From an uncultured Methylomirabilota bacterium (GTDB lineage Bacteria > Methylomirabilota > Methylomirabilia > Methylomirabilales > 2-02-FULL-66-22), in the NCBI GenBank assembly GCA_963705305.1, contig OY970067.1, forward strand, positions 4,480,001 to 4,544,000: a DNA stretch of 64,000 nt, in the 5' to 3' direction. Under the pieces are notes generated by a model. It was not told the DNA's origin. It was given only the letters and a program-made list of their open reading frames with translations, and did no database searches. This document shows, in pieces, positions 22,156 through 62,443 of this stretch (positions are counted from its first letter, which is position 1; each line of letters begins with the position of its first letter). A program made the position numbers and the translations under genes.

Positions 22156-22156
22156 C

Positions 22157-24613: not shown

Positions 24614-24685
24614 GTTCGGGATCGCATTCTCCCTTCGTCACGGGGCGGCTGCCCTGCGGTGTTCCGCCCCGGGAGGCACCCAGAG

Positions 24686-31761: not shown

Positions 31762-31822
31762 GCGAGGTCCCGGGAATCCGTCGCCCCTTCTGTCCGGGCG
31801 GCGGGGCCCGGAGGGATGGCCG

Positions 31823-34648: not shown

Positions 34649-34649
34649 C

Positions 34650-35153: not shown

Positions 35154-35165
35154 GAGGGAGACGCG

Positions 35166-43913: not shown

Positions 43914-43914
43914 G

Positions 43915-45597
43915 ATGCCGGCACACAGGATTCTCCAGCAGCTGAACGAGAAGTTCGCGGCGGTCATCCAGCGGACCGATATCCCCGAGAACACTCGGCT
44001 GTTCGTGTACGTCGAGCCCCAGGCCGTGCCCGACATCTGCCGCCACATCTTTCGGGACCTGGACGCCCGCTATGTCGTGAGCATCGGCCTGGACGACCGG
44101 CCCATCTCGGGGAAGTTTCTGGTGGCCCACGATTTCGCCTTCGATGCCGCCCACGTCCTGTGCAGCATCCTGGCCTACGTGCCCAGCCCCGATCCGCGGA
44201 TCGACAGCATCGCTCCCGCCGTCCCGCCGGCCAACTGGGCCGAGCGCGAGTTTCGGGATCTGGTGGGCATCCAGCCGGTGGGGCACCCGTCCCCCAAGCG
44301 GCTGATCCTGCCGGACGGCTGGCCCGAGGGGGTGCATCCGCTGCGCCGGGACTACCCCTGGAACGCGGTGCCGCCCGGCTACGACGAGACCCGGGAGTAC
44401 GCCTTCGATGACGCGCCGGAGGGCTGCGTGGCCGTCCCCTTCGGCCCCTTCCACCCCACCCTGGACGAGCCGGCGCACTTCCGGCTGTACGTCGAGGGGG
44501 AGATCGTTCGCGGCTGCGAATACCGGGGCTTCATGGTCCATCGCGCCATCGAGAAGCTGGGCGACTCCGTCCTCACCTACAACGAGATCCCCATGGCCGC
44601 CGAGCGCATCTGCGGCATCTGCGGCTGCGTCCACAACGTGGCCTATGCCCAGGCGGTGGAACAGGCGGTGGCGCTCAAGCCGCCTCCCCGGGCCGAATAT
44701 ATCCGGACCATCATGCTGGAGATCGAGCGGCTGCACAGCCATCTCCTCTGGGTGGGGCTGGCCTGCCACATTCTGGGATTCGACACGCTGTTCATGCAGT
44801 GCTTCCGCATCCGCGAGCCCATCATGTGGGTGGCGGAGAAGATCAGCGGCAACCGCAAGACCTACGCCCTCTGCGTGGTGGGGGGCGTCCGCTGGGACAT
44901 CACCCCCCCGCTGAAGGCGGAGCTGCAGCAGGTCCTCTCCACCCTGGAGGCCGAGTGGCGGCCCGTCGCCGCCGCCGTCAGCGGAGATCGGAACATCCAG
45001 CAGCGGACGCGGGGGATCGGAATGGCCGGTCCGCGCCTGGTCAAGGAGGCGGCCCTCATCGGCCCGGTGGCCCGGGCCGCCGGCGTGGACATCGACTGCC
45101 GCCGCGACCACCCCTACGCCGCGTACGGGCGGGTGGACTTCGCGGTGGTGGTGCAGAGCGGAGGCGATGTCTGGTCGCGCCTCCTGGTGCGGGTCCTGGA
45201 GGTCTTCGAGTCCATCAAGATCATCCGCCAGTGCCTGGATCAGATGCCCGAGGGTCCGCTCTGCCTCCCCGCCGGGGACGAGCTGCCCGCCGGCCGCATG
45301 GGGGTGTCCTCGGTGGAAGCCCCGCGGGGCGAGTCCCACCACTTCGTGATCACCGGGGAAAACAACCGCCCCCGGCGCTGGCGCGTGCGGGCGCCGACGT
45401 ACCAGAATCTGCAGGGGGTCCCGGCCATGATCCGGGACCAGCAAATCGCCGACATGACCATCACGCTGGGGAGCATCGACCCGTGCTTCTCCTGCACGGA
45501 TCGCCTGGAGGTGGTCGACGTTCGTTCGGGCGCGGTGCGGGTGTATGCGCAGGCGGAGCTTCTGGCGCTGGCCCGCGCCCCCCGGACCGGGCAATAG
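43915..45597 (+). CDS. Group 4 [NiFe]-hydrogenase large subunit, HycE/HyfG-type NuoC-D fusion
   Basis: N-terminal NuoC domain (WAEREFRDL...HPLRRD), L1 ERICGICGCVH, L2 DPCFSCTDR plus tail. Confidence 0.92.
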   Translation: MPAHRILQQLNEKFAAVIQRTDIPENTRLFVYVEPQAVPDICRHIFRDLDARYVVSIGLDDRPISGKFLVAHDFAFDAAHVLCSILAYVPSPDPRIDSIAPAVPPANWAEREFRDLVGIQPVGHPSPKRLILPDGWPEGVHPLRRDYPWNAVPPGYDETREYAFDDAPEGCVAVPFGPFHPTLDEPAHFRLYVEGEIVRGCEYRGFMVHRAIEKLGDSVLTYNEIPMAAERICGICGCVHNVAYAQAVEQAVALKPPPRAEYIRTIMLEIERLHSHLLWVGLACHILGFDTLFMQCFRIREPIMWVAEKISGNRKTYALCVVGGVRWDITPPLKAELQQVLSTLEAEWRPVAAAVSGDRNIQQRTRGIGMAGPRLVKEAALIGPVARAAGVDIDCRRDHPYAAYGRVDFAVVVQSGGDVWSRLLVRVLEVFESIKIIRQCLDQMPEGPLCLPAGDELPAGRMGVSSVEAPRGESHHFVITGENNRPRRWRVRAPTYQNLQGVPAMIRDQQIADMTITLGSIDPCFSCTDRLEVVDVRSGAVRVYAQAELLALARAPRTGQ

Positions 45598-45607
45598 GGA
45601 AGGAGCC

Positions 45608-46534
45608 ATGAACGCTGGCCTGGGCCTCATGCTGCTCTTCGCGGCGCTGAACGCGGCGCTGGTGCTCGCCGTGGCCCCCCTGTGCGAGGGGATCCTGCGC
45701 AAGGTCACTGCCAAGATCCAGTCCCGGCAGGGGCCGCCGCTCTGGCAGCCCTACTACGACTTGCTGAAGCTGCTGGGCAAGGAGGACCTCGAATCGGGGG
45801 AAAGTCCCCGGATGCAGCGGTTCGCGGCCGTCCTCGCCCTCTCCGCCATCCTGATGGTGGCCATGCTGATCCCCATGGGGCGCCCGGCCCCGCTGGGCGG
45901 GTACGGCGATGTCGTGCTCCTCATCTACCTGCTGACCCTCTGCGGGATCTCCACCATGCTGGCCGGTCTGGCCGCGGGCTCCACCTATTCCCTGGTGGGC
46001 ATGAGCCGGGAGATGATGTCTCTCATGACCCTGGAGCCGCTGCTGGCCGTGGCGATCATCATCGGGACCGTCCATGCCGGCTCGCTGCGCTTGGGGACGG
46101 TGCTGAACGGATCCCTGTACGCCTCGGGTGCGCTTCCCCTGGCCGGCCTCCTCATGCTGGTGGTGGTGCTCCTCTCCCTGCAGGGATTCGTGGGGCGGCT
46201 CCCCTTCGACATCGCCGAGGCCGAGACGGAGCTGATGGAGGGGCCGCTGGCGGAGTACTCGGGGGCCAAGCTGGCGCTCTTCAAGTTCGCCCAGATGGTC
46301 AAGCTGGTGGTGTACAGCGCGCTCCTGGTGGCCCTGTTCGCCCCCTGGGGGAGCGCCTGGCCATACCCCCTGAGCGCGCTCGTGCTGCTGGCCAAGATCT
46401 TGGTCCTGGTCCTGCTTGTGACGCTGGTGGCGGCGACCCACGCCCGCTACCGCATCGATCAGGCCATCCGCTACTACGCCGGCCTGTTCGGCGCCGCCTT
46501 TGTGGCCCTGCTTTTGGCCCTGTGGGGCTTTTGA
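45608..46534 (+). CDS. HycD/HyfC-like membrane subunit
   Basis: IQSRQGPPLWQPYYDLLKLLGK, PFDIAEAETELMEGPLAEYSG. Confidence 0.92.
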   Translation: MNAGLGLMLLFAALNAALVLAVAPLCEGILRKVTAKIQSRQGPPLWQPYYDLLKLLGKEDLESGESPRMQRFAAVLALSAILMVAMLIPMGRPAPLGGYGDVVLLIYLLTLCGISTMLAGLAAGSTYSLVGMSREMMSLMTLEPLLAVAIIIGTVHAGSLRLGTVLNGSLYASGALPLAGLLMLVVVLLSLQGFVGRLPFDIAEAETELMEGPLAEYSGAKLALFKFAQMVKLVVYSALLVALFAPWGSAWPYPLSALVLLAKILVLVLLVTLVAATHARYRIDQAIRYYAGLFGAAFVALLLALWGF

Positions 46535-46548
46535 GGAACGGGGGAGCC

Positions 46549-47073
46549 ATGTCGCTGCTGAGCAAGCTGAAGGAAACCGCGATCTGCCTGCGGGCTGGAA
46601 GGGTGACCCGGCCCTACCCGGCCCAGCCGGCCCCCACCCCTCCCGGCTTCCGGGGACGGCCGATCTTCGATGCGAGCAAGTGCATCGGCTGCGCCGGCTG
46701 CGCCAACAACTGCCCCGCCCGCGAGATCCTGGTCCACGACATCTGCCAGGAGATCCGCATCATCAAGTACATCGGGCGCCGCTGCACCTATTGCGGCCGC
46801 TGCGCCGACGTCTGTCCCGAAAAGGCCATCACGATGAGCACGGACTTCGAGACCGCCACCAACGACATCCACGACCTCCAGCAGGAGCTCGAGCTGTTCA
46901 TGGGGACCTGCCAGCGCTGCGGCCGCTGCTTCAAGGAGCCGGGGCCCCTCGAGCAGCTCATGATGAAGGGGTACCGGTTCGACGAGCTCAAGGACGATCG
47001 GTGGATCCACCGCTCGACGGCCTACCTTGAGGGCCAGCCGGTGGTCCGAGATATTGAGATCGAGCTGGATTGA
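46549..47073 (+). CDS. HycF/HyfH-like 4Fe-4S subunit
   Basis: GFRGRP, CIGCAGCANNCP, CTYCGRCADVCP, CQRCG. Confidence 0.9.
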   Translation: MSLLSKLKETAICLRAGRVTRPYPAQPAPTPPGFRGRPIFDASKCIGCAGCANNCPAREILVHDICQEIRIIKYIGRRCTYCGRCADVCPEKAITMSTDFETATNDIHDLQQELELFMGTCQRCGRCFKEPGPLEQLMMKGYRFDELKDDRWIHRSTAYLEGQPVVRDIEIELD

Positions 47074-47081
47074 CGCCATAA

Positions 47082-47233
47082 CAGGCCGCTGAAAAAGGCC
47101 CATCTGCGGCGTTGGTCCGCTCGGGCACTCGCTGCGGCGTACTGAAAGTACGCCTCACTCAGCCCTTTGCGGACCGCCTTGCATCTGGACCTTTTTGAGC
47201 AGCCTGGGGGAAGGCGGGTTTTTCATCACACTG
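47082..47233 (+). mobile_element. MITE copy 3, inside the hydrogenase operon
   Basis: CAGGCCGCTGAAAAAGGCCCATCTG...GCATCTGGACCTTTTTGAGCAGCCTG...TTTTCATCACACTG. Confidence 0.8.
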
Positions 47234-47249
47234 ATAGGGGGGAACGGAC

Positions 47250-47785
47250 GTGTTAAAGGGACTCTGCCGGAAGGTCTTCCCGCGGTCGCTCTGGGTCTAC
47301 CACGCCAACAGCGGGGGCTGCAACGGATGCGACATCGAGGTCCTGAACGTCCTGACCCCGTATTATGATGTGGAGCGCTTCGGCATCCGGCTGGTGGGCT
47401 CCCCCCGCCACGCCGATGTGATGCTGTGCCAGGGACCCGCCATGCGGTCCACCGCCCGGGCGCTGCGGCGCGCCTACGAGGCCATGCCCGCCCCCAAACT
47501 GGTCTTCGCGATCGGCTCTTGCGCATGTGGGGGGGACTCTGGTATGATACATACAGCGTCCTGGGGCCGGTGGAGAAGGTGCTTCCCGTGGATTTCTACA
47601 TCCCGGGCTGCCCGCCCCGCCCCGAGGCGATCCTCTACGGGGTGGCGGTGGCGGTAGGGCTGGTGGACAAGAAGGTGGCGCCGGTCCAGCTCAAGCAGCT
47701 GGAGTTCCCGATCCCGAAATACCATCCGGAAGACCTCCAGCAGGACGACGGCATGGTCGTCTATCAGAAGCTCAACCGGGTGTAA
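47250..47785 (+). CDS. HycG/HyfI-like small subunit; one-base frameshift in the G7 run at 47529-47535
   Basis: GGCNGCDIE...SPRHAD...GSCACGG, then LWYDTY...YIPGCPPRP in the adjacent frame; G8 restores a 178-aa protein. Confidence 0.88.
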
Positions 47786-47844: not shown

Positions 47845-48186
47845 ATGCACGAAGTGGGCCTGATGCAGGACACGCTCATCATCGCGCTCCGGCACGCCAC
47901 GCAGGAGGGCGCCCGGCGGGTTCACCGCCTGACCATGCGGGTGGGTCCCCTGTCGGGTGCCGTCCCCGAGGCCCTGGAGTTCGCCTTTGACGTGCTGGCC
48001 CGCGGCACCATGGCCGAGGGCGCCCGTCTGGAGATCGAGCGCGTCCCCATCGTGTGCTACTGTCCGAGCTGTGCCCAGGAATTCACGGCCGACGATTTCC
48101 TCTGCGAATGTCCCCACTGCCATGCGCCCAGCGTGGAGGTTCGGCACGGCCGGGAGCTGGAGCTCGCCAGTCTGGAGGTATCCTGA
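47845..48186 (+). CDS. hypA: Hydrogenase nickel metallochaperone
   Basis: MHE start, CPSC...CPHC, GREL. Confidence 0.96.
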
Positions 48187-48187
48187 C

Positions 48188-49084
48188 GTGTGCAAGGAAT
48201 GCGGCTGCGGCATCGTGGAAGGCTTTCGAGTCGACGGAGAGCCGGTCGTTGCGGACCCGGGGCCGGGTACCCCCGGGGTGGCCCCCGGGGCGGCGCATAC
48301 CCATTCGCACGAGGCCGGGGAGGACCACGGCCATTCCCATCCGCACCCGCACGGGCCGCATGTCCACGGCGCCGACCATGCGCACGACCACCGGACGGTC
48401 CCGGTGCACGAGGCGATCCTCGATAAGAACGACCGGCTGGCCGAGCGGAACCGCGGCTACTTCGCCGGCAAGGGCCTGCTCGTGCTCAACCTGCTCTCCT
48501 CCCCGGGCGCCGGCAAGACCGCTTTCATCGAGCGGACGGTGGCGGACCTGGGGGCGCGCCTCCGGGTCGGCGTGATCGTGGGCGACCTCGAAACGGACAA
48601 CGACGCGCGGCGGCTGCGCGGCCGCGGGGTACCGGCGGTCCAGATCACCACCGGCAACGTGTGCCACCTGGATGCGGAGATGGTCGCCCACGCCCTGGAG
48701 CGGCTGGAGCTGGACGCCCTGCAGGTCCTCATCATCGAAAACGTGGGGAACCTGGTCTGCCCGGCCTCCTACGATCTTGGCGAGGACTTCCGCGTGGTGA
48801 TCATGTCGGTCACCGAGGGCGAGGACAAGCCGCTCAAGTACCCGGTCATGTTTCGCACCGCGCAGGTGGTCGTGGTCAACAAGACCGACATCCTCGAAGC
48901 CGTCGGATTCGACCGCGAGACCGCCCTGCAAAACATCCGCCGCGTGGCCCCCCAGGCCACCATCTTCGAGCTTTCGGCGCGCACGGGAGAAGGCATGGCG
49001 CAGTGGTACCAATACCTCGAGGAGCGGCTGCGCCGGCCCCGCCACGGCGTGATCCGAAACCCGGCGGGAACGGCAGCCTCCTAA
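48188..49084 (+). CDS. hypB: Hydrogenase nickel-incorporation GTPase
   Basis: GTG start (M)CKECGC, His-rich linker, [32 protein letters not shown]. Confidence 0.96.
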
Positions 49085-49104
49085 CCCCATTCCGAAAATA
49101 TCTC

Positions 49105-49252
49105 ACCGCCAAGGCGCCAAGAAGGCCATGGCTGGAATGGGCGGAACACCCAGCGACTGGAGCCGCGTCAAGCCCCCCGGAGGGGGCGTTCCGGAGCACG
49201 GAGTCAAACCAGCCGAATTCCGTGGACTATGAGACCTCGGCGTCATGGCGGT
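49105..49252. repeat. REP-like element (CCGCCAAGRCGCCAAG family), paired arms
   Basis: ACCGCCAAGGCGCCAAG (49105-49121) and CTCGGCGTCATGGCGGT (49236-49252). Confidence 0.65.
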
Positions 49253-49279
49253 TCAAGAGTATTCTCGGCTCAAGGCTAA

Positions 49280-49496
49280 CAGGCGTCTGAAAAACTCCCA
49301 TCTGCGGACACCCCGCCTTCGGCCGGGTACCCGCGCACTCCTGCGGGGCTGCGACGTACGCGCTCAGTACGCCTCCGACCCACCTCCGGTGGGTACCCCG
49401 CGGCGGGTACCGATCCCGAGGGATGGATGACGGCGCCTTGCATCTGGGCCTTTTTGAGCAGCCTGACCGAAAATGAGTTTTTCTGCCGATCCCCTG
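49280..49496 (+). mobile_element. MITE copy 4 (right end degenerate)
   Basis: CAGGCGTCTGAAAAA...GTACGCCTCCGACCCACCTCCGGTGGGTACCCCGCGG (shared with copy 2)...CTTTTTGAGCAGCCTGACCGAAAAT. Confidence 0.8.
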
Positions 49497-49653
49497 CCCT
49501 TCGCCCGGCGACCGGCGATCGTCTCTATCCCTGCCATGATCCTTGCCAGCGTTCCAAGCGCTCGAGTTCTCCCTCACCTATTCTTCACGAGTTATCTCCA
49601 TTCATGGATAAATACGAGCAACATTATCTGCTAACTGTTTAAAATATTTACAC

Positions 49654-49682
49654 TTGACGCAATTCCATGCAGGTGCCATTCT
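49654..49682 (+). promoter_or_regulatory. Putative sigma70 promoter of the hdr-mvh cluster
   Basis: TTGACG-N17-CATTCT with TG extension, after an AT-rich UP-like tract. Confidence 0.4.
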
Positions 49683-49936
49683 ATTTTCAAAGTGAGATTG
49701 GTCAGGCCAGCGGACCATCTGGCCTCAGGTGATAAGGGGAAGCTACGAAAGGAACCCAAACCAGGAAATAAGCCGCATTACCGGATTGAGCTCGTCGTCT
49801 CGACCCGTCAAACAACCATCGAAAGACGCCATGATTACACGCGATCAGCGCACCGACACCTCATAATTCTCGCGCGACCGACCCGTCACGACACCGGCCG
49901 CGCTGCGCCAAACCCCGCGACCTCCCGGAGGGGGCA

Positions 49937-51997
49937 ATGAGTCATCAGGTACGTTCGGAGGGTTTCCCGGGCAACGGCAACGGAGATACACCGCGCACGG
50001 GCGTATTCATATGCCACTGTGGCGGGAACATTTCCGACGTGGTAAACGTCCAACGCGTCGCGCAGGAGATCGGCGCCCTCCCGGGTGTGGCCTGCTCCAT
50101 GACCCACACCTTCATGTGCTCCGACCCCGGCCAAGCCCTCATCCAGGAGAAGATCAAGGAGTGCAATCTCAACCGGGTCGTCGTCGCCGCCTGCTCTCCC
50201 AGCCTGCATGAACTGACGTTTCGCCGCACCCTCACCCGCAGCGGCCTGAACCCCTACCTGTACGAACATTGCAACATCCGCGAGCAGTGCTCCTGGGTGG
50301 TCCGCAATAAGGAGCTGGCCACCCAGAAGGCCACGCGGCTGATCCGCGCGGCGGCAGCGCGCGCCGGCCATCTGACTCCCCTGCAGAAGCGCCGCATCCC
50401 CATCCACCCCGAGGCGCTCGTCATCGGCGGAGGCATCGCGGGCCTGGTGGCAGCCCGGGACCTGGCGCAGCGCGGCATCCGCGTCACGCTGGTCGAACAG
50501 TCGCCGTTCCTGGGAGGCCGGGTCGCCCAGATGGGGAAGGTCTTCCCCACCGAAGAGCGCGCCCGCGATCTTTTGAATCCCATCATCGCCGAGGTCGTCA
50601 AGCATCCCCGGGTGACCGTCCTCACCAATGCCCGGGTGACCCACGCCGAGGGGATTGTCGGCAATTTCAAGGCGCACATCCAGATCATTCCTCGCGGCGT
50701 GAACTCCAGGCTGGCCGCTCCCGGCCACGTCATGGCCGCCTGCCCCGTGGAGACCGAGAACGAGTTCGACTTCGGATTGACCAAGCGGAAGGCGATCTAC
50801 CAGCCCTACTACGGCTGCTATCCGCAGCTGCCCGCCATCGATTGGACCGCCTGCACCAAGTGCGGGAAGTGTATCGAGGCATCGGGGGGGAAAGGCATCG
50901 AGCTGGATGCACAGCCGCGCGAAACCGAAGTGCATGCCGGCGTGATCGTCCTGGCCACGGGCCACGACCCGTACGAGCCGCTGCCAGGCGAGTACGGGTA
51001 CGGGAAGTTCCCGGAGGTGGTGACCCTCCAGCAGATGTACCGGATGCTGGACACCGACGGGCCCACGGGCGGCGAGGTGAAAGCCAACGGCGCTCCCGTC
51101 CGCACGGTCGTCTTCATCTACTGCGTCGGCGCACGGCAGCGCGAGGGCATCAGCGTGCCCATGCCCGACGGGCGGGTGCGCGAGTACTGCGGCAGGACCT
51201 GCTGCACCGCCTCGCTGAAGATCGCCACCGAGCTGCAGGAGCGCTACCCCCGCATGAACATCTACAGCTTCTACCAGGATGTTCGCGCCTACGGCCGCGG
51301 GCACGAGGAATACTACACCCGGGCATCCGAGGGCGGCGCCATCTTCCTCCGCTACGACCCCAACCATCCCCCGCGGGTGGAGAAAGATTTTCGCGGGACG
51401 TCCGCGCTGATCGTGCGCGGCCGCGACCTCCTGACGGGGGATGTCGAGCTGGAGGTTCCGGCCGACCTGGTGGTCCTGTCCACCGGCGTCGTGCCCCACG
51501 ACATCAGCGACCTGGTCGAGATCTTCAAGTGCTCCATCGGTCCGGACACCTTCTTGCTGGAGGTCCATCCGAAGCTGCGGCCGGTCGAGCTGGCGGTGAG
51601 CGGGGTCTTCCTGGCGGGGACCTGCCAGAGTCCCATGGACATCACCGAGGCCTCGGCCGGCGGCGCGGCTGCCGCGTCCAAAGCCGCCGCCATGGTGGTG
51701 CAGGCCGAGGTCGAGATGGATCCCTTCATCGCCACCGTGGATGAGCAGCTCTGCACCGGATGCCAGACCTGCCTCACAGTGTGTCCCTACGACGCCCTCA
51801 GCCGGGACGAGGCCAAGCACATCGCCGTGGTCAACGAGGCCCTGTGCACCGGCTGCGGCAGCTGCGCCGCCACCTGCCCGAGCGATGCGATCCAGCAGCG
51901 GGGGTTCACAGACCGCCAGGTGCTTTCCGAGCTGCTGGCGCTCCTGGCGCGCCAGGCGCCGGCGGGAGCAGGCGATCTATTGACCGTCGGCCGATAA
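49937..51997 (+). CDS. hdrA: Divergent HdrA-like flavoprotein (QmoB-like)
   Basis: CHCGGNI, FMCS, ACSP, GGGIAG, YCGRTCC, HPKLRPVE, C-terminal 2x[4Fe-4S]. Confidence 0.9.
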   Translation: MSHQVRSEGFPGNGNGDTPRTGVFICHCGGNISDVVNVQRVAQEIGALPGVACSMTHTFMCSDPGQALIQEKIKECNLNRVVVAACSPSLHELTFRRTLTRSGLNPYLYEHCNIREQCSWVVRNKELATQKATRLIRAAAARAGHLTPLQKRRIPIHPEALVIGGGIAGLVAARDLAQRGIRVTLVEQSPFLGGRVAQMGKVFPTEERARDLLNPIIAEVVKHPRVTVLTNARVTHAEGIVGNFKAHIQIIPRGVNSRLAAPGHVMAACPVETENEFDFGLTKRKAIYQPYYGCYPQLPAIDWTACTKCGKCIEASGGKGIELDAQPRETEVHAGVIVLATGHDPYEPLPGEYGYGKFPEVVTLQQMYRMLDTDGPTGGEVKANGAPVRTVVFIYCVGARQREGISVPMPDGRVREYCGRTCCTASLKIATELQERYPRMNIYSFYQDVRAYGRGHEEYYTRASEGGAIFLRYDPNHPPRVEKDFRGTSALIVRGRDLLTGDVELEVPADLVVLSTGVVPHDISDLVEIFKCSIGPDTFLLEVHPKLRPVELAVSGVFLAGTCQSPMDITEASAGGAAAASKAAAMVVQAEVEMDPFIATVDEQLCTGCQTCLTVCPYDALSRDEAKHIAVVNEALCTGCGSCAATCPSDAIQQRGFTDRQVLSELLALLARQAPAGAGDLLTVGR

Positions 51998-52009
51998 GGG
52001 GGATTGGGC

Positions 52010-52525
52010 ATGACTGATCGCGCCATGCACGAGATGCAGGAGGCTCCATCGGCCCCGGGAAGCTGGGAGCCCCGGATCGTCGGATTCCTCTGCTACTGGT
52101 GCTCGTACACCGGGGCGGACGGGGCCGGGACAGCGCGCATGTCCTACCCCCCCAACGTGGACATCGTGCGCCTGATGTGCTCGGGACGCTGCGACCCCCA
52201 GCTGATTACCGCCGCGTATGCCAACGGCGCCGATGGGGTCCTCGTCCTGGGCTGCCACGTCGGCGATTGCCACTACATCAGCGGGAACCACAAGACCATG
52301 GCGCGCATGCCGCTGCTGCGCCGCGTCCTGGACGAGCTGGGCATCGAGCCGGAGCGGTTTCGCCACGACTGGGTGAGCGCCGCCGAGGGGGAGAAATTCA
52401 CCCGGGTGGTGACCGAGATGACCGAGCAGGTGCGCCGGCTGGGTCCCCTGAACTGGCCCGGGCTCCTGCATGCGCGAGGGGTCGGACACGGCATGGATCT
52501 CCATCCCTGGGGGGAGCGCCCATGA
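52010..52525 (+). CDS. mvhD: MvhD [2Fe-2S] subunit
   Basis: FLCYWCSY, MCSGR, GCHVGDCHY, WVSAAEG. Confidence 0.93.
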   Translation: MTDRAMHEMQEAPSAPGSWEPRIVGFLCYWCSYTGADGAGTARMSYPPNVDIVRLMCSGRCDPQLITAAYANGADGVLVLGCHVGDCHYISGNHKTMARMPLLRRVLDELGIEPERFRHDWVSAAEGEKFTRVVTEMTEQVRRLGPLNWPGLLHARGVGHGMDLHPWGERP

Positions 52526-53523
52526 GCGCGGAACAGACCAAGAGCAAGCTGAAGGTGGCCAAGTACTGGGCGTCCAGCTGCGGCGGGTGCGACATCTCGC
52601 TCCTGGAGATCGGTCCCCGCCTGCTGGATCTGATCGCCATCGCCGATGTCGTCTTCTGGCCCTGCGCGGCGGACTTCAAGTATCGGGACGTCGCCAACTA
52701 TCCGGACGGCTACATCGATATCTGCTTCTACAACGGAGGGGTGCGGAACTCGGAGCAGGAAGAGGTTGCGCGCCTGCTGCGCCAGAAGAGCAAGACCCTG
52801 ATCGCCTACGGCGAGTGCGCCGTTGGCGGCGGCATTCCCGCCCTCGCCAACCTGAAGTCGCGCGCCGGGATCTTCGAGGCGGCCTATCACCAGAACCCCT
52901 CCATCGACAATCCGGACGGTGTGGAGCCCCGGCCGGTGGTCCAGTCCCCCGTCGGGGAGCTCGAGATCCCCGTCTTCTACCCCGGCGTCCTGCGCCTGAA
53001 GGATGTGATCGAGGTGGACTACGAGATCCCCGGCTGTCCGCCGCAGGCCGACCGGGTGTGGGAGGCCATCCAGGCCGTGGCAGGCGGGGCGGTGCCCGCG
53101 CGCAATACCGCCGTTCCGGTCGGCTGCGGGAACAAAAGCGTCTGCGACGAGTGCAGCCGGGAGAAGCGCCTGGTGAAAATCGGCCGGTTCACCCGCCATC
53201 ACCTGGTGCGCCCGGAGCCCGGCTGGTGCCTGCTGGAACAAGGGATCCTGTGCATGGGGCCGGCCACCCGCAGCGGCTGCGGGGCCCTCTGCCTCAAGGC
53301 CGATATGCCGTGCGAGGGCTGCTACGGCCCGTCGGGAGAGACGCTGGACCAGGGGACCGCCATGGTGGGCGCCGTGGGGGCCATCCTCGACGCCACGACC
53401 GAAGAGCGCGCCCACGAGCTCATCCAGCAGATCGTGGATCCCGCCGGCAGCTTCTACCGCTTCACGCTGGCCGGCGGCTACATGAAGGGCAGGAACGAGG
53501 CGCGGGGGGAGGACAGGGCATGA
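52522..53523 (+). CDS. mvhG: Group 3c hydrogenase small subunit
   Basis: [38 protein letters not shown]...CEGC. Confidence 0.92.
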
Positions 53524-55034
53524 CCAGTCCACAGGTGAAGACCGCCGAAGGGTTGCGCCGGATCAGCATCGATCCCGTGACCCGCCTGGAGGGCCACGGC
53601 AAGATCGATATCTTCCTGGATGCCGAGGGGAATGTGGCGGATTGCTTCTTCCAGGTGCCGGAGCTGCGCGGGTTCGAGAAGTTCTGCGAGGGGCGCCCGG
53701 TCGAGGAGATGCCGCGCATCACTCCCCGGATCTGCGGGGTCTGCCCGGAGGCGCACCTGATGGCCTCGGCGAAGGCGTGCGACGCGGTCTACGGGGCCGA
53801 GCTGCCGCTCACGGCCAAGCTCCTGCGCGAGCTGCAGTACAACATCTTCTTCGTCACGGACCACACCACCCACTTCTACGCCCTGGGGGCGCCGGACTTC
53901 GTCATGGGCCCGCAAAGCGACCCCGCACTGCGCAACCTGATCGGGGTCATCGGCAAGGTCGGCGTACAGATCGGCGGCGAGGTCATCAAGTGCCGTGCCT
54001 GGGGACACGAGGCCGCCGCCATCTTCGGCGGCAAGCCGGTGAATCCCGCCAACGCCATCCCGGGGGGGATGAGCAAGCCCCTCAAGCCCGAAGAGCGCGA
54101 CCGGGTGGAGGAGATCTGCCGCTTCATGGTGGAGTTCGGGAAGTTCACCCTGAAGCTGCTGCACGACGTCGTGCTTGCCAACAAGGAGTATGTGGACCTG
54201 ATCCTCACTGGCCCCTACTACCAGGAGACCTACTCCATGGGGCTGGTGGACGAGAAGAACCGGGTGAACTACTACGACGGGAAGGTGCGGGTCGTGGACC
54301 CCGAGGGGAACGAGCTCTGCAAGTACGCCCCGCCCGAGTACGCGCGGCACATCGCCGAGCGTGTGGAGCCCTGGAGCTACCTGAAGTTCCCGTACCTGAA
54401 GGCGGTGGGCTGGAAGGGGCTCGTCAGCGGCAAGGAGTCGGGGGTCTACCGGGCCACCCCGCAGTCCCGGTTGAACGCCGGGGACAGCATGAACAGCCCC
54501 TTGGCCCAGGAGGCCTACGAGGAGTATTTCGAGACGCTGACGGGAGACAAGAGCGGCAGGAAGCCCGTCCACCACACCCTGGCCATCCACTGGGCCCGGG
54601 TCATCGAGCTTCTGAACGCGGCCGAGCGGGCGCTGGAGTTGGTGCGACACCCGGAGATCACCCATCCCGAGCACTACCGGGTGGTGTGCGACAAGACCCC
54701 CAGGGAGGGGGTGGGCATCGTCGAGGCGCCGCGCGGAACCCTGACCCACCACTACGTCACGGACGAGACCGGTCGCGTGAAGAAGGCCAATCTGATCGTC
54801 GGGACGACGAACAATCATGCCGCCATCTGCATCTCCATCAAGCAGGCGGCTCAGGGGTTGATCAAGAAAGGCGTGGAGGTCACCGAGGGCGTCCTGAACA
54901 TGATCGAGATGGCCTTCCGCGCCTATGATCCATGTTTCGGCTGTGCCACCCACAGCCTGCCGGGTCAGATGCCGTTGATCGTGCGGGTGCGGGACGTGGA
55001 CGGCAGCGTGCTGAGCGAAAGGCGGCGAGGGTAA
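53520..55034 (+). CDS. mvhA: Group 3c [NiFe]-hydrogenase large subunit
   Basis: [10 protein letters not shown]1 RICGVC, L2 DPCFGCATH plus tail. Confidence 0.93.
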
Positions 55035-55071
55035 ACCGGCGGGACGGAGCCCCCCAGGGAAAGGGCGCACC

Positions 55072-56400
55072 ATGGCAGAGATCAAGGAACGCTACGACGG
55101 GTTGGTCATCGGGGCGGGGATCGCCGGTATGCAGGCGGCGCTGGATCTGGCCGGCCAGGGGTACCAGGTCCTCCTGGTGGAGAGTCAGCCCTCCATCGGC
55201 GGGGTCATGGTCTCCCTGAACAAGGTCTTCCCCACCCTGGACTGCTCCAGCTGCATCTGCACCCCCCGCATGGCCGAGGTTGCCCACGACGAGAACGTCA
55301 CCATCCTGACCTACACCGAGGTCGAGAAGGTCGAGCCCCAGGGATCCGGGTTCCGGGTCCGCCTGCGGCAGAAGCCCCGCTACGTCGTGGCGGAGGACTG
55401 CATCGGGTGCAGCCTGTGCGAGCTGGCGTGCGACGTCTACGTCCGCCACGAGTTCGACTACGGACTGGGGGCGCGGCGCGCCATCTACATCCCCCACGCC
55501 AACGCCATTCCCCAGGTGGCGGTCCTGGATGCGGAGCACTGCGTGTTCGACGGCAACTGCGCCAAGGTGTGTCCCACCGACTGCATCGACTTCACGCAGC
55601 AGCCGGTCGAGCGCACCATCCAGGTGGGGGCCGTCATCATCACCACCGGGCTCACCATCACCCCCATGGACGCCAAGAAGGAGTACGGGGGGGGCACGCA
55701 CCTCAACGTCATGAGCCCCCTGGCGATGGAGCGGGTCCAGTCCTCCAACGGACCCTACGGGCGGGTCCTTCGCCCGTCGGACGGGAAGATTCCTCAATCG
55801 GTCGCTTACGTCCAATGCGCCGGGAGCCGGGACGCCTCCATCGGCGTGTCGTATTGCTCCCGAGTGTGCTGCATGTACGCCATCAAGCAGGCGATCATGC
55901 TGAAGCATGAGCGGCACGACGTGAACGTCACGATCTACTACATGGACATCCGGGCCTTCGGCAAGAACTACGAGCAGTTCTACCGGCGCGCCGTCGCCGA
56001 CGGGATCCATTTCGTCAAGGCCAAGGTGGCAAAGATCGCGGAGGTGGACAACCACGACCTGGTCCTGCGCGTGGAGCTGATCGAGGAAGGGGGGCGCATC
56101 GGAGAGATCCGGCACGATCTGGTGGTGCTCAGCCAGGGGCTGAGGCCCGCCTGGCACGCGGACGGGGTGATCCCGGTGGAGGAGAGCCCGGACGGGTTCT
56201 TCACAACCCCCCAGGCGAAGGTTCGCCCGGTGAAGACCACCGTCGAGGGGATCTTCGTAGCGGGTGTGGCCGCCGGTCCGAAGGACATTCCCGATGCCAT
56301 CGTGGAGGCCGGCGCGGCTGCCATGGAGGCAGCCATCCATCTCGAGCGCACCGGCGCAGGCCGGCCGGCGCGGGCGGCGGTCGGCGTCAGCCACGATTGA
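55072..56400 (+). CDS. hdrA: Short HdrA-like flavoprotein (QmoA-like; no N-terminal domain or C-terminal ferredoxin)
   Basis: GAGIAG, FPTLDCSSC, inserted ferredoxin, CAGSRD, YCSRVCCMYAIK, GPKDIPD. Confidence 0.88.
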   Translation: MAEIKERYDGLVIGAGIAGMQAALDLAGQGYQVLLVESQPSIGGVMVSLNKVFPTLDCSSCICTPRMAEVAHDENVTILTYTEVEKVEPQGSGFRVRLRQKPRYVVAEDCIGCSLCELACDVYVRHEFDYGLGARRAIYIPHANAIPQVAVLDAEHCVFDGNCAKVCPTDCIDFTQQPVERTIQVGAVIITTGLTITPMDAKKEYGGGTHLNVMSPLAMERVQSSNGPYGRVLRPSDGKIPQSVAYVQCAGSRDASIGVSYCSRVCCMYAIKQAIMLKHERHDVNVTIYYMDIRAFGKNYEQFYRRAVADGIHFVKAKVAKIAEVDNHDLVLRVELIEEGGRIGEIRHDLVVLSQGLRPAWHADGVIPVEESPDGFFTTPQAKVRPVKTTVEGIFVAGVAAGPKDIPDAIVEAGAAAMEAAIHLERTGAGRPARAAVGVSHD

Positions 56401-56430
56401 GCGACAGCGGAGGGATGACGGGGGGCAACC

Positions 56431-56724
56431 ATGAGTGAGTCGAAACGCGACTGGAGAGCAGACCTGAAGACCTTCCGCGAGCGAATGGGGGGGCTCACCG
56501 AGGCGAAGAAGGCCTACTTCAAGGCCGACCGCGACACGCGCAAGGCCCTGACAGAGGCGCTGAAGTCCGGTCCCAAAACGATCCCGGAGCTGACACGACA
56601 CTTGAAGCTCCCCGGTCCCGAGGTGGTGTGGTACGTCATGGCCCTGAAGCGGTACGGGGACGTGGTGGAGGCCGGCCAGGCCGGCGACTACCTCACATAC
56701 GCCCTGAAGGAGTCGGCGTCATGA
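56431..56724 (+). CDS. Small winged-helix-like protein
   Basis: GPKTIPELTRHLKL...VWYVMALKRYGDV wHTH pattern; overlaps the next gene (ATGA). Confidence 0.75.
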   Translation: MSESKRDWRADLKTFRERMGGLTEAKKAYFKADRDTRKALTEALKSGPKTIPELTRHLKLPGPEVVWYVMALKRYGDVVEAGQAGDYLTYALKESAS

Positions 56725-57884
56725 GCGTTCGTGTGGATCCGGATGTGGTCAGGGAGCTGGCAGAGTACGGAGCCGACACAGCCGTCAAGTGCTTCAATTG
56801 CGGCAACTGCACCGCCGTCTGCGCGCTGTCCAAGGAGGACACCACCTTCCCACGGCGGTACATCCGCAACATGCAGCTGGGACTCAAAGACAAGCTGCTG
56901 GAATCCATCGATCCCTGGCTGTGCTACTATTGCGGCAACTGCTCGGACACCTGTCCGCGCGAGGCCCAACCCGGCAAGCTCATGATGGCCAGCCGGCGCT
57001 GGCTCACCAGCATGTACGATTGGACCGGACTGAGCCGCCGGATGTACCAGCGGGCGCGGTGGGAGCTGGGACTGCTGGCGGCCGTGGCCGTGGCGGTCCT
57101 GCTGCTGTTCAGCCTGCCGTCCGATTTCGGGTTGCGCCTGCTTCTCCGGCACCCCGAGGCTCTCCGGACCGTCAATCTGGAATTCTTCGCCCCGATGGTG
57201 TACGTCCATTACGCGGACATCTTCCTGGCCGTCCTGCTGGGTCTTATGCTGGCCGTCAACGCCGGGCGCATGGTGGGCTTCGCCACGCGCAGCGGCCCCC
57301 GTGTCCCCCTGGGCATCTACCTGTCGCACGCGGCGGACCTGGTGGCCCACGGCCTGACCCAGAAGCGCTGGCAGCAGTGCGACACCAACACGATCAAGCA
57401 CTGGGTCCGACACATGACCCTCGTCACCGCGTACGGGACCATGTTTATTCTGGTGGTCGTCTTCCTGCCGTGGTTCCAGGTGCCGAACACCTCCTTTCAC
57501 TGGACCAGTTTCCTCGGGTACTACGCAACCCTCATCCTGCTCGGCGCCACCACCTGGATCATCCTGGACCGCCTGAAGAGGCGGGATCAGATGCACAAGC
57601 ATCCGGATCTCTCCGACTGGCTGTTCGTGATCCTGCTGTTCCTGACCGCCCTGACGGGAATTGTCCTCAACGTGTTCCGTTTGTTGGATCTGCCCGTCCC
57701 GACGTACGTCACCTACACCATCCACCTGATGATCGCCGTGCCCATGCTGGTGGTGGAGGTGCCCTTCAGCAAGTGGCCGCACCTCGTCTACCGGCCGCTG
57801 GCGGCGTTTCTCGCCGCAGCCCGCGCCAAGGCCGCCGAGCGGCAGCCGGCCGCCGTCCGCACGGCCCCTGCGCTCCCTTCCTGA
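56721..57884 (+). CDS. QmoC-like membrane protein (HdrC-like 2x[4Fe-4S] plus cytochrome b-like membrane domain)
   Basis: CFNCGNCTAVC, WLCYYCGNCSDTCPR, several TM helices containing His, PFSKWPHLVYRP. Confidence 0.85.
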   Translation: MSVRVDPDVVRELAEYGADTAVKCFNCGNCTAVCALSKEDTTFPRRYIRNMQLGLKDKLLESIDPWLCYYCGNCSDTCPREAQPGKLMMASRRWLTSMYDWTGLSRRMYQRARWELGLLAAVAVAVLLLFSLPSDFGLRLLLRHPEALRTVNLEFFAPMVYVHYADIFLAVLLGLMLAVNAGRMVGFATRSGPRVPLGIYLSHAADLVAHGLTQKRWQQCDTNTIKHWVRHMTLVTAYGTMFILVVVFLPWFQVPNTSFHWTSFLGYYATLILLGATTWIILDRLKRRDQMHKHPDLSDWLFVILLFLTALTGIVLNVFRLLDLPVPTYVTYTIHLMIAVPMLVVEVPFSKWPHLVYRPLAAFLAAARAKAAERQPAAVRTAPALPS

Positions 57885-57918: not shown

Positions 57919-57948
57919 GAAGAGGGCCTTCGGGCCCTCTTCGTGTTT
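57919..57948 (+). terminator. Stem-loop, likely intrinsic terminator
   Basis: GAAGAGGGCC-TTCG-GGCCCTCTTC followed by GTGTTT. Confidence 0.65.
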
Positions 57949-58333
57949 CGGGCGCTCCGCGCCGACACGATCCATCCTGCCGTCTCTCCCACGCGTTCCG
58001 GCCGTACCCCACCCACTTGTTGCGCCCCGCTATCACGCGCCTCGCAGACCTCGGTCGGCTCAATCTCCGTCGCTGAAGCCGCCGTGCTGAATTTCTCAAC
58101 AGATGAATGCGACGACAGACATTCGCCCTAATGCGCTTGAATTTGCCGATCGCGAGAGTATCGTCATCGCAGATGCGGGGCGCGCCCGTATGCCCCCGCC
58201 CAGACAGGATGCCGGCCGATCCTGCGCCGGATTTCCGGAGCAGGGAGACCGGAAGACGACAGTCGGCGCCGAGAACCGGCGGTCTACACGCTCCGCCCCT
58301 CGGCCGAATCGTGGAGCCAGGAGGAATCAGGCC

Positions 58334-58984
58334 ATGCCCCATCTAGCCACGGGAGGGGAGGCGCCGCGTGCGGCGCGACCCATCCAGGAGCGGAAGGACG
58401 TCCGCCGACACATCACGTACGAATCCGAGCTGGACCCGGGGTTCGCCGAAAAAATCGCCCGGCTGGCCTACGGGGAAAAACTCTTCAGCTGCATCCAGTG
58501 CGGGACGTGCAGCGGCACCTGTCCGGTGAGCCACTACATGGACTACACGCCCCGCAAGATCATCGCCATGGTCCGAGAGGGCTTCCGGGACGAGGTCCTG
58601 AACAGTCTCACCATCTGGCTGTGCGCCTCGTGCTACTCCTGCACGGTGGACTGCCCCCGGGAGATCAAGATCACCGACGTGATGTACGCCCTCAAGCAGG
58701 AGGCCATGACCCAAGGGCTTTACCCGAAGCGGTTTCCCATCCCCGTCCTGGCGCGCGAGTTCTTCCGCGGCGTGGCCAGTCACGGCCGGAACAGTGAAGG
58801 CCCCCTGATGGTCAGGTTCTTCCTGAAGACGAACCCCCTTCGAATGCTCAGGAACGCGCCCGTCGCCTGGCGCCTCTGGCGGACGGGCCGACTCTCGCTG
58901 CTGGCGGAGAAGACGCAAAGCAAGGGCGTCGTCGGGAGGCTTTTACGCGCCGCCAAACAGGTCGAAGAAGGGAGTGCGCAATGA
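58334..58984 (+). CDS. hdrC: Heterodisulfide reductase subunit C-like
   Basis: CIQCGTCSGTCP, WLCASCYSCTVDCP; RBS AGGAGG. Confidence 0.92.
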   Translation: MPHLATGGEAPRAARPIQERKDVRRHITYESELDPGFAEKIARLAYGEKLFSCIQCGTCSGTCPVSHYMDYTPRKIIAMVREGFRDEVLNSLTIWLCASCYSCTVDCPREIKITDVMYALKQEAMTQGLYPKRFPIPVLAREFFRGVASHGRNSEGPLMVRFFLKTNPLRMLRNAPVAWRLWRTGRLSLLAEKTQSKGVVGRLLRAAKQVEEGSAQ

Positions 58985-59889
58985 CCTACCTGTATTACCC
59001 GGGGTGCTCGCTCAAGAGCACCGGGAGGGCATATGAGGAGTCGGCACTGAAGGTGTTTCAGGCGCTGGAGGCCCCCCTTCAGGAGCTCGAGGATTGGAAC
59101 TGCTGCGGGGCGACCGCCTATATGTCGGTGGACGAGGTGCAGGCCTTCTCCCTGGCCGCCCGCAACCTCTGCCTGGCGGAGCAGCACGCGTCAGCGCAGA
59201 CGAAGGAGCCCGTACAGCTCGTCGCCCCCTGCGCCGCATGCTTCCTGGTCCTCACCAAGACGCAGCGCTACCTGGAGATGCATCCGGACCTGGACCGCCA
59301 GGTGAAGGCGGCCCTCCAGGCCGTGGGACTCACCTTTACGGGCCAGGTCCGTGTCCGCCACCCGCTGGACGTGTTCGTCAATGACATCGGCATCCCGCGG
59401 ATTACCAAGAGGGTCAAGCGCAGTCTGAGCGGCCTGAAGGTCGCCTGCTATTACGGGTGCCAGATCGTCCGCCCCTTCGCCACGTTCGACGACGCCCACA
59501 ATCCCACCACCATGGATCGCGTGGTCGCCGCCCTGGGGGCCAGCTCGGTCAAGTGGCCGCTCAAGACCCGCTGCTGCGGAGGCTCCCTCAGCGGCACCAT
59601 CCCCGATGCGGGTCTCCGGCTGAGCCAGATTCTGCTGCAGGAGGCCAAGCGCCGCGGGGCCGACATCGTGGTCACCGCGTGCCCGCTCTGCCAGTTCAAC
59701 CTCGAGTGCTACCAGAAGGAAATGGGCCGGGCGTTCGGCCAGCCGGTGGACATCCCGGTGCTCTACCTCACCCAGCTCATGGGCAGAGCCTTCGGGATCT
59801 CCGACCGGGAGCTGGGCATGCAGCGCCTGTTCGTGTCCCCCGCGGACGTATTTGCCCGGCAGGAAGGAGGTCAGGCCGTCCATGCGTGA
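58981..59889 (+). CDS. hdrB: Heterodisulfide reductase subunit B-like
   Basis: YYPGC, CCG, CAAC, YYGC, CCGG, CPLC (two CCG domains). Confidence 0.93.
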   Translation: MTYLYYPGCSLKSTGRAYEESALKVFQALEAPLQELEDWNCCGATAYMSVDEVQAFSLAARNLCLAEQHASAQTKEPVQLVAPCAACFLVLTKTQRYLEMHPDLDRQVKAALQAVGLTFTGQVRVRHPLDVFVNDIGIPRITKRVKRSLSGLKVACYYGCQIVRPFATFDDAHNPTTMDRVVAALGASSVKWPLKTRCCGGSLSGTIPDAGLRLSQILLQEAKRRGADIVVTACPLCQFNLECYQKEMGRAFGQPVDIPVLYLTQLMGRAFGISDRELGMQRLFVSPADVFARQEGGQAVHA

Positions 59890-61912: not shown

Positions 61913-62443
61913 TTGACTGGCCACACGAACGCAAGCAGCGCTCCGGCGCCGGTCCAGGGGTGGGAGCCCCGCATCGTCGCCTTCTTCTGCAACTGGTGCA
62001 CCTACACCGCGGCGGACCTGGCAGGGGTCTCCCGCATGAAGCACGCGCCCAACATCCGGATCATCCGGCTGATGTGCTCCGGCCGCGTGGATCCGCAGTT
62101 CATTCTGGACGCCTTTGCCAAGGGGGCCGACGGCGTGCTCATCGGCGGCTGCCACATCGGCGATTGCCATTATGCCGAGGGGAACTACAAGACCGTCCGC
62201 CGGATGCACATGCTGAAGCGGGTCCTGGAGGAGATGGGGATCGAGGAGGAGCGCTTCCGGCTCGAGTGGATCTCCGCGTCGGAAGGCGAGAAGGTCAAGC
62301 TGGTCGTCAACGACATGGTGGAGAAAGTGCGGGCCCTCGGCCCGCTGGGCCTGCCCCGGCGCTTCCTGGAATGGGATGCCGAGATGGACTCGCTGGAGCA
62401 CGCCATCGAAGGAGCCAAGGAGGTCGAGGTCCATGCCAGATAA
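61913..62443 (+). CDS. mvhD: MvhD [2Fe-2S] subunit
   Basis: FFCNWCTY, MCSGRV, GCHIGDCHY, WISASEG; TTG start after GGAGGT. Confidence 0.93.
   Translation: MTGHTNASSAPAPVQGWEPRIVAFFCNWCTYTAADLAGVSRMKHAPNIRIIRLMCSGRVDPQFILDAFAKGADGVLIGGCHIGDCHYAEGNYKTVRRMHMLKRVLEEMGIEEERFRLEWISASEGEKVKLVVNDMVEKVRALGPLGLPRRFLEWDAEMDSLEHAIEGAKEVEVHAR

Follow-up and report, generated by a model that had tools for sequence, protein, structure and literature searches.

A cluster of seven genes on the plus strand fills positions 49937-57884 of the 64,000-nucleotide stretch of DNA analysed here (the window), which comes from an uncultured Methylomirabilota bacterium whose genome is a single contig of 5.65 Mb, 98.9% complete. 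The cluster encodes two HdrA-type flavoproteins, one long and one short, the three subunits of a [NiFe] hydrogenase between them, a winged-helix protein of 97 aa and a QmoC-like membrane subunit. A preliminary description had claimed these coordinates and this gene content, with two complementary HdrA proteins placed around a hydrogenase and a QmoC-like membrane protein following them, all of which is confirmed by family matches and gene calls (Table 1). Successive genes are spaced by 6, -4, -4, 37, 30 and -4 bp, neighbours being no more than 37 bp apart or overlapping by 4 bp, and the seven genes therefore form one tight unit. Since the window is rich in guanine and cytosine (GC, ~0.61-0.71 per 2-kb window), genes were chosen by third-position GC and family matches. 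The start of the QmoC-like gene was set at the ATG at 56721 instead of 56628, because the former overlaps the stop codon of the 97-aa open reading frame (ORF) as ATGA and the resulting 387-aa product fits most of the homologues listed.

Table 1. Genes and other features of the operon and its surroundings, in window coordinates
Feature	Position	Strand	Basis
Long HdrA, 686 aa, QmoB-like architecture	49937-51997	+	family matches
MvhD, [2Fe-2S] delta subunit, stand-alone gene unfused to HdrA	52004-52525	+	PF02662 170.8 bits, VhuD 130.8 bits
MvhG, hydrogenase small subunit, 333 aa	52522-53523	+	VhuG 202.7 bits
MvhA, [NiFe] large subunit, Mvh/group 3c type, 504 aa	53520-55034	+	VhuA 366 bits, 5odc_F 382 bits
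Short HdrA, 442 aa, QmoA-like architecture	55072-56400	+	HdrA model positions 136-562/777, 8rvv_A 390 bits
Winged-helix protein, 97 aa, directly 5' of qmoC	56431-56724	+	predicted fold
QmoC-like subunit, 387 aa, HdrC-like domain and six predicted membrane helices	56721-57884	+	NF038018 203.7 bits
GC-rich hairpin, possible terminator	57920-57943	+	10-bp stem, UUCG loop, weak U tail
hdrC of downstream unit	58103-58984	+	family match
hdrB of downstream unit, CCG domains	58981-59889	+	family match
hdrA of downstream unit, four-domain, 679 aa	59852-61891	+	family match
mvhD of downstream unit	61913-62443	+	family match
mvhG of downstream unit	62376-63407	+	family match
mvhA of downstream unit	from ~63500, runs off window	+	family match
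Group-3b-like four-subunit hydrogenase with duplicated AsrB-like genes	21316-26534	+	gene matches
Mrp/Mbh-type group-4 set	28036-36469	+	gene matches
FdhA-like molybdoenzyme, formate dehydrogenase	37480-39510	+	gene matches
Second group-4-like or Hyf-like set	40244-47785	+	gene matches
hypA and hypB	47845-49084	+	gene matches

The arrangement of the seven genes is non-random, because their synteny is conserved in related loci. A survey limited to one genome per species returned at least 597 pattern matches, 539 of them confirmed as relatives, and the best 80 were examined, each locus being mapped by tblastn using only the window's own proteins as queries. The hydrogenase lies between the two HdrA genes and upstream of qmoC in 26 of the 80 loci, with all seven genes detected in 23 of these, and the gene order on which the preliminary description relied thus recurs. 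These same-order loci are mostly from Acidobacteriota, Gemmatimonadota and Methylomirabilales; the labels include Bryobacteraceae, Solibacteraceae, Holophagae, Thermoanaerobaculales, Vicinamibacterales and other Acidobacteriota, as well as one Geobacteraceae and a few that are doubtful. Short HdrA, long HdrA and qmoC occur without a hydrogenase at 33 loci and at a further 11 that are cut short upstream, a mixed set from Anaerolineales, Phycisphaerae, Desulfobacterales and others, to which two Bacteroidales loci that end immediately past qmoC also belong. The order hdrA-qmoC-hdrA-mvhDGA is found at eight loci (Bacteroidales, Chlorobiota), and two loci were unclassifiable. The genome studied here itself carries a second Qmo-like locus of the hydrogenase-less kind (C1:2195363-2201245, minus strand), consisting of genes for an mvhD-like protein, short HdrA, long HdrA, a winged-helix ORF homologous to the 97-aa protein, a QmoC-like protein, a DsrE2-like protein and a 131-aa ORF without an assigned family; its short HdrA, long HdrA and QmoC-like proteins are 58%, 46% and 34% identical to those of the window.

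By sequence, the hydrogenase is of the Mvh type (group 3c). The large subunit is nearest to MvhA/VhuA, retains the four Ni-Fe cysteines and the motifs RLEGH, RICGVC and C-terminal DPCFGCATH, the last followed by a 26-residue tail, and is accompanied by MvhG and MvhD. Its closest solved relative is 5odc_F, and the VhuA, VhuG and VhuD matches listed in Table 1 all lie under cut-offs that are specific to methanogens. The absence of hdrB from the unit, claimed in the preliminary description, is upheld as no gene with CCG domains is present in 49937-57884; the hdrC and hdrB genes at 58103-59889 belong to a second, complete unit, and the operon does not itself encode an MvhADG-HdrABC complex.

In alignments that also include solved HdrA and the window's canonical HdrA, the long and short HdrA proteins divide the features of a complete HdrA between them. 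Long HdrA matches NF040770 at 652 bits (positions 1-643 of 777) and the solved 5odc_A at 548 bits, and contains an N-terminal Fe-S domain (CHCGGNI...CSDPGQ...CSP), a flavin adenine dinucleotide (FAD)/thioredoxin-reductase domain with a Cys cluster and a C-terminal 2x[4Fe-4S] ferredoxin domain. It is without the Cys197-type Cys pair, FPTEERARDLL replacing the FPT(L/N)DCxxC of HdrA, and its inserted ferredoxin domain has Cys left for one cluster only. Short HdrA is missing both terminal domains and consists of an FAD domain with FPTLDCSSC, which is of the Cys197 type, and an inserted ferredoxin domain in which seven Cys are invariant among 48 aligned family members. Both proteins retain the FAD motif and the Cys cluster of the thioredoxin-reductase domain as invariant alignment columns. 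At window positions 55537-55572 (short HdrA residues 156-167) the second cluster motif reads C-x2-D-x2-C-x3-C-P, the family consensus having Cys in place of D, and the sequence may thus specify, for the low-potential exit, a 3Fe cluster or one with an Asp ligand.

The same division is observed in 13 HdrA pairs, namely those of 12 of the 26 same-order loci and that of the window: FPTLDCxxC is present in the short form in 13/13, no Cys occurs in that motif of the long form in 13/13, and the N-terminal motif is detected in 12/13 long forms using a simple pattern within the first 120 residues, the single miss (L045) being an over-long ORF call. According to Chadwick et al. (PMC9012536; this and the other papers are cited from excerpts), the N-terminal cluster of one HdrA receives its last ligand, Cys197, from the partner HdrA, and complementarity between N-terminal domain and Cys197 in tandem hdrA genes is a sign of a heterodimer. 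The window pair is complementary by this published test, which points to a heterodimer of long and short HdrA.

The QmoC-like protein matches the NCBIfam qmoC model NF038018 over positions 4-357 of 360, scoring below its cut-off of 300 bits. Sequence matches to solved structures cover only the first ~95 residues and are all to HdrC. An AlphaFold2 (AF2) model of the protein (predicted local distance difference test, pLDDT, 79.2; predicted template modelling score, pTM, 0.79) shows the Fe-S domain followed by six long helices. Foldseek against the PDB returned no match to this model at E <= 0.001, the best rows being HdrC, EtfD and NarI at weak scores. In the VIA structure search of the membrane part, Escherichia coli CybB ranked first (5oc0_A; Z 9.9, 134 residues aligned, root-mean-square deviation (rmsd) 3.6), followed by Mycobacterium smegmatis EtfD (9ojn_A; Z 9.2, 219 aligned, rmsd 5.2) and NarI (1q16_C; Z 8.7, 175 aligned, rmsd 5.6). 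These three top natural matches are all haem-b or quinone-linked membrane proteins. A QmoC-like protein without haem-ligating His had been named as a finding that would undo the original proposal, and this is not what is observed: His 231, 335 and 354, together with the eight Cys of the HdrC-like domain, are invariant in 12 sequences including five apr-linked QmoC, the latter verified as encoded after aprB-aprA-qmoA-qmoB, and the three His are likewise invariant in 49 members of the window's QmoC-like family. His163 is conserved within a subclade, being invariant in the 18 closest sequences, whereas apr-linked QmoC, like some relatives, has Asp or Glu at this position. The number of haems is uncertain, because two bis-His haems need four His and only three are universal. 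Homologues are numerous, 2868 at E <= 1e-20 among 8000 candidates scored, the best being ~70% identical and derived from metagenome-assembled genomes (MAGs) labelled Methylomirabilota and Acidobacteriota.

The module is Qmo-like by architecture. In common with canonical (type I) QmoABC, it combines a short and a long HdrA-like flavoprotein with a fusion of an HdrC-like domain and a six-helix cytochrome b, the QmoC-like member of which has an HdrC-like 2x[4Fe-4S] domain followed by six predicted helices with conserved His, including the shared His 231, 335 and 354; a fourth universal His was not found. In contrast, the genes of canonical Qmo follow aprBA and QmoB (777-780 aa) is fused to an MvhD domain, neither of which is the case here, MvhD being the product of a separate gene. 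aprA and aprB are absent from the window, as first described, and also from the whole genome, the best matches being 45 bits against a cut-off of 641.75 for aprA and 35.1 bits against 135.65 for aprB, the latter falling on the ferredoxin domain of long HdrA itself. Canonical QmoC scores 476-506 bits versus 203.7 here, and in five Desulfobacterales genomes a true QmoC (475.7-506.4 bits) is present along with a separate QmoC-like copy of the window's kind (195.6-203.2 bits). No winged-helix gene is present between qmoB and qmoC at five apr-linked loci, because the gaps there are only 13 to 120 bp.

Orthology with QmoABC did not hold in an HdrA/QmoA/QmoB phylogeny of the kind advised in the preliminary description. 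In a 78-row HdrA tree, obtained by a quick search with midpoint root, few references and apr-linked Qmo from a single bacterial order, HdrA proteins of the type studied here fall into two clades of 27 rows each, one of short forms (support 100) and one of long forms (support 80), both separate from a branch that unites apr-linked QmoA with QmoB (SH-aLRT 99). Hydrogenase-bearing operons are monophyletic within each of the two clades (99 and 98). Identities agree with this topology: short HdrA of the window is 33-34% identical to apr-linked QmoA versus 40% to the window's canonical HdrA, and long HdrA 26-29% identical to QmoB versus 39% to canonical HdrA. By sequence, the module is paralogous and not orthologous to apr-linked QmoABC. 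Tree and identities agree instead with type II QmoAB(C) of Neukirchen et al. (2023, PMC10504309), the function of which is stated there to be open: the HdrA pair resembles typical HdrA more closely than canonical QmoAB, and Apr is absent, a likeness drawn from the excerpted description of type II, the published sequences (Ammonifex, Vulcanisaeta) standing outside our HdrA tree. An embedded hydrogenase is not mentioned in that excerpted description.

Another known system resembling the operon is the MvhADG-HdrABC complex of methanogens (PDB 5odc, 8rvu, 9sw2), the source of the best solved relatives of MvhA, of both HdrA proteins and of the HdrC-like domain, with which the putative complex of the window has the electron input path and flavin site in common. 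The methanogen complex is soluble, contains a homodimeric four-domain HdrA and reduces heterodisulfide at HdrB, whereas in the window HdrA is split into two complementary proteins and a membrane cytochrome domain stands in place of HdrB.

The 97-aa protein matched Pfam helix-turn-helix families below threshold only (HTH_5, 14.6 bits versus a cut-off of 22), and HTH_20 was passed by one of five orthologues tested (28.4 versus 27). In its AF2 model (pLDDT 89.2) a winged helix follows two helices, and the top Foldseek rows are Rv0880, ZitR, SmtB and SqrR with a probability of 1.00 and a best E of 1.5e-3, which is the fold of MarR/ArsR/SmtB-type repressors. The earlier label of winged helix-turn-helix is thus borne out at the level of the predicted fold, and the nearest Atlas clusters are automatically named ArsR or wHTH. 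A winged-helix gene stands directly before qmoC in 26/26 same-order loci and, among the loci without a hydrogenase, in 22/33 and 8/11 (30/44 together), with none in the eight Bacteroidales-type loci.

Binding of the 97-aa protein to QmoC and short HdrA was examined by complex prediction, with an alignment of 48-49 rows for each of the three chains. With the 97-aa protein the interface score ipSAE was 0.79, 0.79 and 0.78, the best of three controls giving 0.00; the mark used for this score, reached by 116/157 solved complexes and 2/215 mismatched pairs, is a rough guide here given the use of own alignments and three chains. Docking runs agree in at least 93% of contacts with a partner pLDDT of 82, and swapping out short HdrA abolished the docking score. 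All contacts named on short HdrA fall within residues 104-175, which align to the inserted ferredoxin domain, and 211-242, while those on the 97-aa protein are residues 6-37, 51-75, including helix 3 (62-74 in the model), and 86-88 in the wing. By this prediction, the 97-aa protein binds short HdrA at its inserted ferredoxin domain. The protein could be a structural subunit dedicated to HdrA heterodimers of the type II Qmo-like kind, its 'recognition' helix clamped on the inserted domain of short HdrA so as to form or gate a ferredoxin docking site, a suggestion to which we give not quite an even chance. An ArsR-type regulator of operon transcription that is no part of the complex is a conceivable but less probable role, for which the match to repressor folds, the weak HTH_5 and HTH_20 similarities with one orthologue above gathering score, and the automatic names of the neighbouring Atlas clusters all speak. 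Against regulation, the gene is always inside the operon before qmoC in the same-order loci and here overlaps it by 4 bp, the docking prediction is strong relative to the controls, and the predicted interface includes helix 3 (62-75), the family consensus of which is largely hydrophobic (VLWHxMAMKKYG). The conservation of a winged-helix protein beside qmoC and its predicted docking on short HdrA are what is new here; the literature examined, cited from excerpts and not searched with this aim, contains no mention of a winged-helix subunit of HdrA/Qmo complexes. If the protein is a structural subunit, it would define an unrecognised, phylum-spanning family of membrane-anchored bifurcases, with members that have a built-in Mvh hydrogenase, as in the window, and members that do not, as in the second locus.

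Judging from the genes, we consider it somewhat probable that the seven products constitute one membrane-anchored complex that splits H2 electrons between menaquinone and ferredoxin; its assembly, each step of electron flow, bifurcation, the use of ferredoxin and the direction of the reaction are what we infer. H2 would be oxidized in the cytoplasm at MvhA and electrons would pass through MvhG and the [2Fe-2S] cluster of MvhD, enter long HdrA at its C-terminal ferredoxin domain and then reach FAD, an obligate heterodimer of long and short HdrA standing in for the HdrA homodimer of methanogens. Short HdrA would donate the Cys197-type ligand to the N-terminal cluster of long HdrA and would bear the sole intact inserted ferredoxin domain. 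The flavin would split the electron pair: the high-potential electron would reach menaquinone by way of QmoC, using its HdrC-like clusters and b haems, and the low-potential electron would reach ferredoxin by way of short HdrA, leaving from the inserted ferredoxin domain. The winged-helix protein would be a small subunit on this low-potential exit. That MvhD feeds the C-terminal ferredoxin domain of HdrA and that the inserted ferredoxin domain is the low-potential exit has been described for HdrA (PMC9012536, PMC13518236). Net turnover would be 2 H2 + MQ + Fd(ox) -> MQH2 + Fd(red) + 2 H+, MQ and Fd being menaquinone and ferredoxin. The potential of H2 is -414 mV. Taken together with ~-75 mV for menaquinone (PMC3333476) and ~-500 mV for ferredoxin (PMC13518236), H2-driven reduction of both acceptors is exergonic by arithmetic. 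The genome encodes MqnC of the futalosine route to menaquinone (470.5 bits, over cut-off), MenA of the classical route remaining under its cut-off at 35.9 bits.

Several points weigh against this proposal. The type of operon is known from genes alone, both here and in the same-order loci, and the HdrA tree is subject to the restrictions of search, root and sampling given above. Among sequencing runs, none of RNA is listed as containing the stretch, while one DNA run contains 0.19 of its words. The membrane part of QmoC drew a null result from Foldseek, and VIA Z scores of 8.7-9.9 are ambiguous as they are also reached by unrelated helical bundles. Only three of the four ligands that two bis-His haems would require are invariant family-wide, and short HdrA of the window carries Asp for the second Cys of its second ferredoxin motif. 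Docking of the 97-aa protein is a statement of model confidence, obtained from own alignments and three chains, unlike those with which the tool was calibrated, and the repressor fold of this protein may mean a regulator's role.

Some of the same observations would fit a plain H2:menaquinone oxidoreductase that does not bifurcate, the HdrA pair acting as a wire and ferredoxin being uninvolved. The Mvh input and QmoC output modules suffice for such an enzyme, one cluster of the inserted domain has been lost from long HdrA, the Asp in short HdrA affects a cluster motif, and the predicted position of the 97-aa protein is over the site on the inserted ferredoxin domain at which ferredoxin would bind. 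This alternative is nevertheless unlikely as the FAD motif and thioredoxin-reductase-domain Cys cluster are kept in both HdrA proteins, seven Cys of the short form's inserted domain are invariant in 48 sequences, and conserving two flavoproteins and a low-potential exit across phyla would be costly for a wire.

The complex envisaged as bifurcating could also operate physiologically in reverse, menaquinol and reduced ferredoxin being confurcated to H2 as an electron sink. We rate this direction as improbable, since by arithmetic menaquinol at ~-75 mV makes H2 formation strongly uphill unless H2 is extremely low, and Mvh-type enzymes are uptake enzymes in methanogens, even though flavin-based bifurcases are reversible in principle and a neighbouring hydrogenase island with two group-4-like membrane enzymes and a formate dehydrogenase would suit H2 cycling. 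Confurcation has, moreover, been proposed for Qmo (PMC3333476).

A further alternative concerns the acceptor of the low-potential or second branch, which may be a cytoplasmic partner enzyme or a sulfur carrier, for example of the Dsr system, and not free ferredoxin. In sulfate reducers QmoA contacts AprAB (PMC3333476), and the genome search for sulfur and menaquinone genes advised in the preliminary description yielded, besides MqnC, a dsr cluster (C1:2553248-2567512, minus strand) in a genome without apr and without any match to Sat. The cluster encodes a DsrL-like NAD(P)-binding protein, dsrA (572 bits), dsrB, a cobB-like gene of the dsrN type, dsrC, a 191-aa ORF and dsrM-K-J-O-P. The hydrogenase-less second Qmo-like locus adjoins a DsrE2-like gene. 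Yet dsrA is over cut-off in just 5/26 genomes with the same-order operon, which are MAGs and possibly incomplete, and the tblastn maps, made with the window's proteins as the only queries, show no conserved extra gene beside the operon; a dedicated partner of this kind therefore has little to recommend it in our estimate. The same count makes a general role of the operon in the Dsr pathway less likely, although H2-derived menaquinol could feed DsrMKJOP in this organism. The dsrMKJOP genes are followed by a DsrK/HmcF-like and TmcC/HmcE-like pair.

A bifurcation linking hydrogenase, Qmo and HdrA has already been proposed for archaea and is not a new idea. A 'Mvh-Qmo-Hdr' cluster has been reported in Ca. 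Methanoglobus nevadensis (bioRxiv 10.1101/2022.12.01.518715) and Ca. M. hypatiae (PMC10945360), in the latter of which it is highly expressed, and the same hypothesis, H2 electrons split between menaquinone and ferredoxin, was proposed for Methanoglobus in these reports. From their excerpts, the archaeal cluster has in common with the operon MvhAGD, two HdrA, a QmoC/HdrC-type membrane cytochrome and the lack of HdrB in the cluster and of AprAB in the genome; it differs in that a small winged-helix gene is unmentioned in the excerpted text, and the likeness is drawn from the gene content described. A hydrogenase was also listed as a possible co-donor of Qmo by Ramos et al. (2012, PMC3333476). 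No description of a bacterial operon with the same gene order was found in the literature searched, and papers pairing Qmo with mvhDGA describe, in the excerpts, separate loci. The operon is thus a bacterial variant, common among soil bacteria, of a system already proposed and still hypothetical, the winged-helix docking being the one fresh point.

If the proposal is correct, many soil and sediment bacteria of the Acidobacteriota, Gemmatimonadota, Methylomirabilales and other groups could charge the quinone pool and ferredoxin at once from cytoplasmic H2, needing neither heterodisulfide nor a sulfur substrate, by a route that hydrogenase surveys file as 'group 3c, Hdr-linked'. It would also provide an experimental handle on the long-open role of the two flavoproteins in Qmo-type complexes, for the electron donor is encoded within the operon and there is therefore no partner to guess. 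The winged-helix subunit at the low-potential exit is a concrete, predicted hypothesis that is cheap to test.

Downstream of the operon, a canonical hdrC-hdrB-hdrA-mvhD-mvhG-mvhA unit starts at 58103, 218 bp past the qmoC-like gene. The window therefore holds a tandem of Mvh hydrogenases, the first connected to QmoC and the second to HdrBC. The two hydrogenases are paralogues with identities of 55% for MvhA, 42% for MvhG and 62% for MvhD. Among the same-order loci, 21 extend 3 kb or more downstream, and neither hdrB nor hdrC is adjacent in any of them; the tandem is therefore particular to this genome. Assembly of the operon's HdrA proteins with the downstream HdrBC, which had been put forward as an outcome contrary to the original proposal, finds no support in this survey, the downstream unit being self-complete with its own complete HdrA and its own MvhDGA. 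The downstream hdrC ORF as called has ~110 residues (58103-58430) without a family match before the HdrC domain, and the true start may lie further inside the ORF. A fused copy of the 97-aa protein as the origin of this extension was ruled out (BLASTP E 0.85, hhalign probability 0.1); the long tblastn matches in the search for such fusions are all on the HdrC-like domain of qmoC itself, some extending upstream over the winged-helix gene.

The terminator-like hairpin reported 3' of the operon is present, beginning 36 nt past the qmoC stop and succeeded by GUGUUUC. It is a weak terminator candidate, because a consensus scan called no terminator 3' of qmoC and the 121-nt stretch containing it folds no better than shuffled sequence (z -1.3). 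No Rfam family reached gathering score anywhere within the window. Upstream, window positions 21316-49084 on the plus strand constitute a hydrogen-metabolism island (Table 1), the last gene of which, hypB, is separated from the operon by ~850 bp (49085-49936). The ORFs of at least 80 aa in this gap are one of 116 aa on the minus strand (49227-49577), which is without a family match and failed the third-position GC filter, and one of 82 aa on the plus strand (49692-49940), and the sole promoter-like site found there is on the minus strand.

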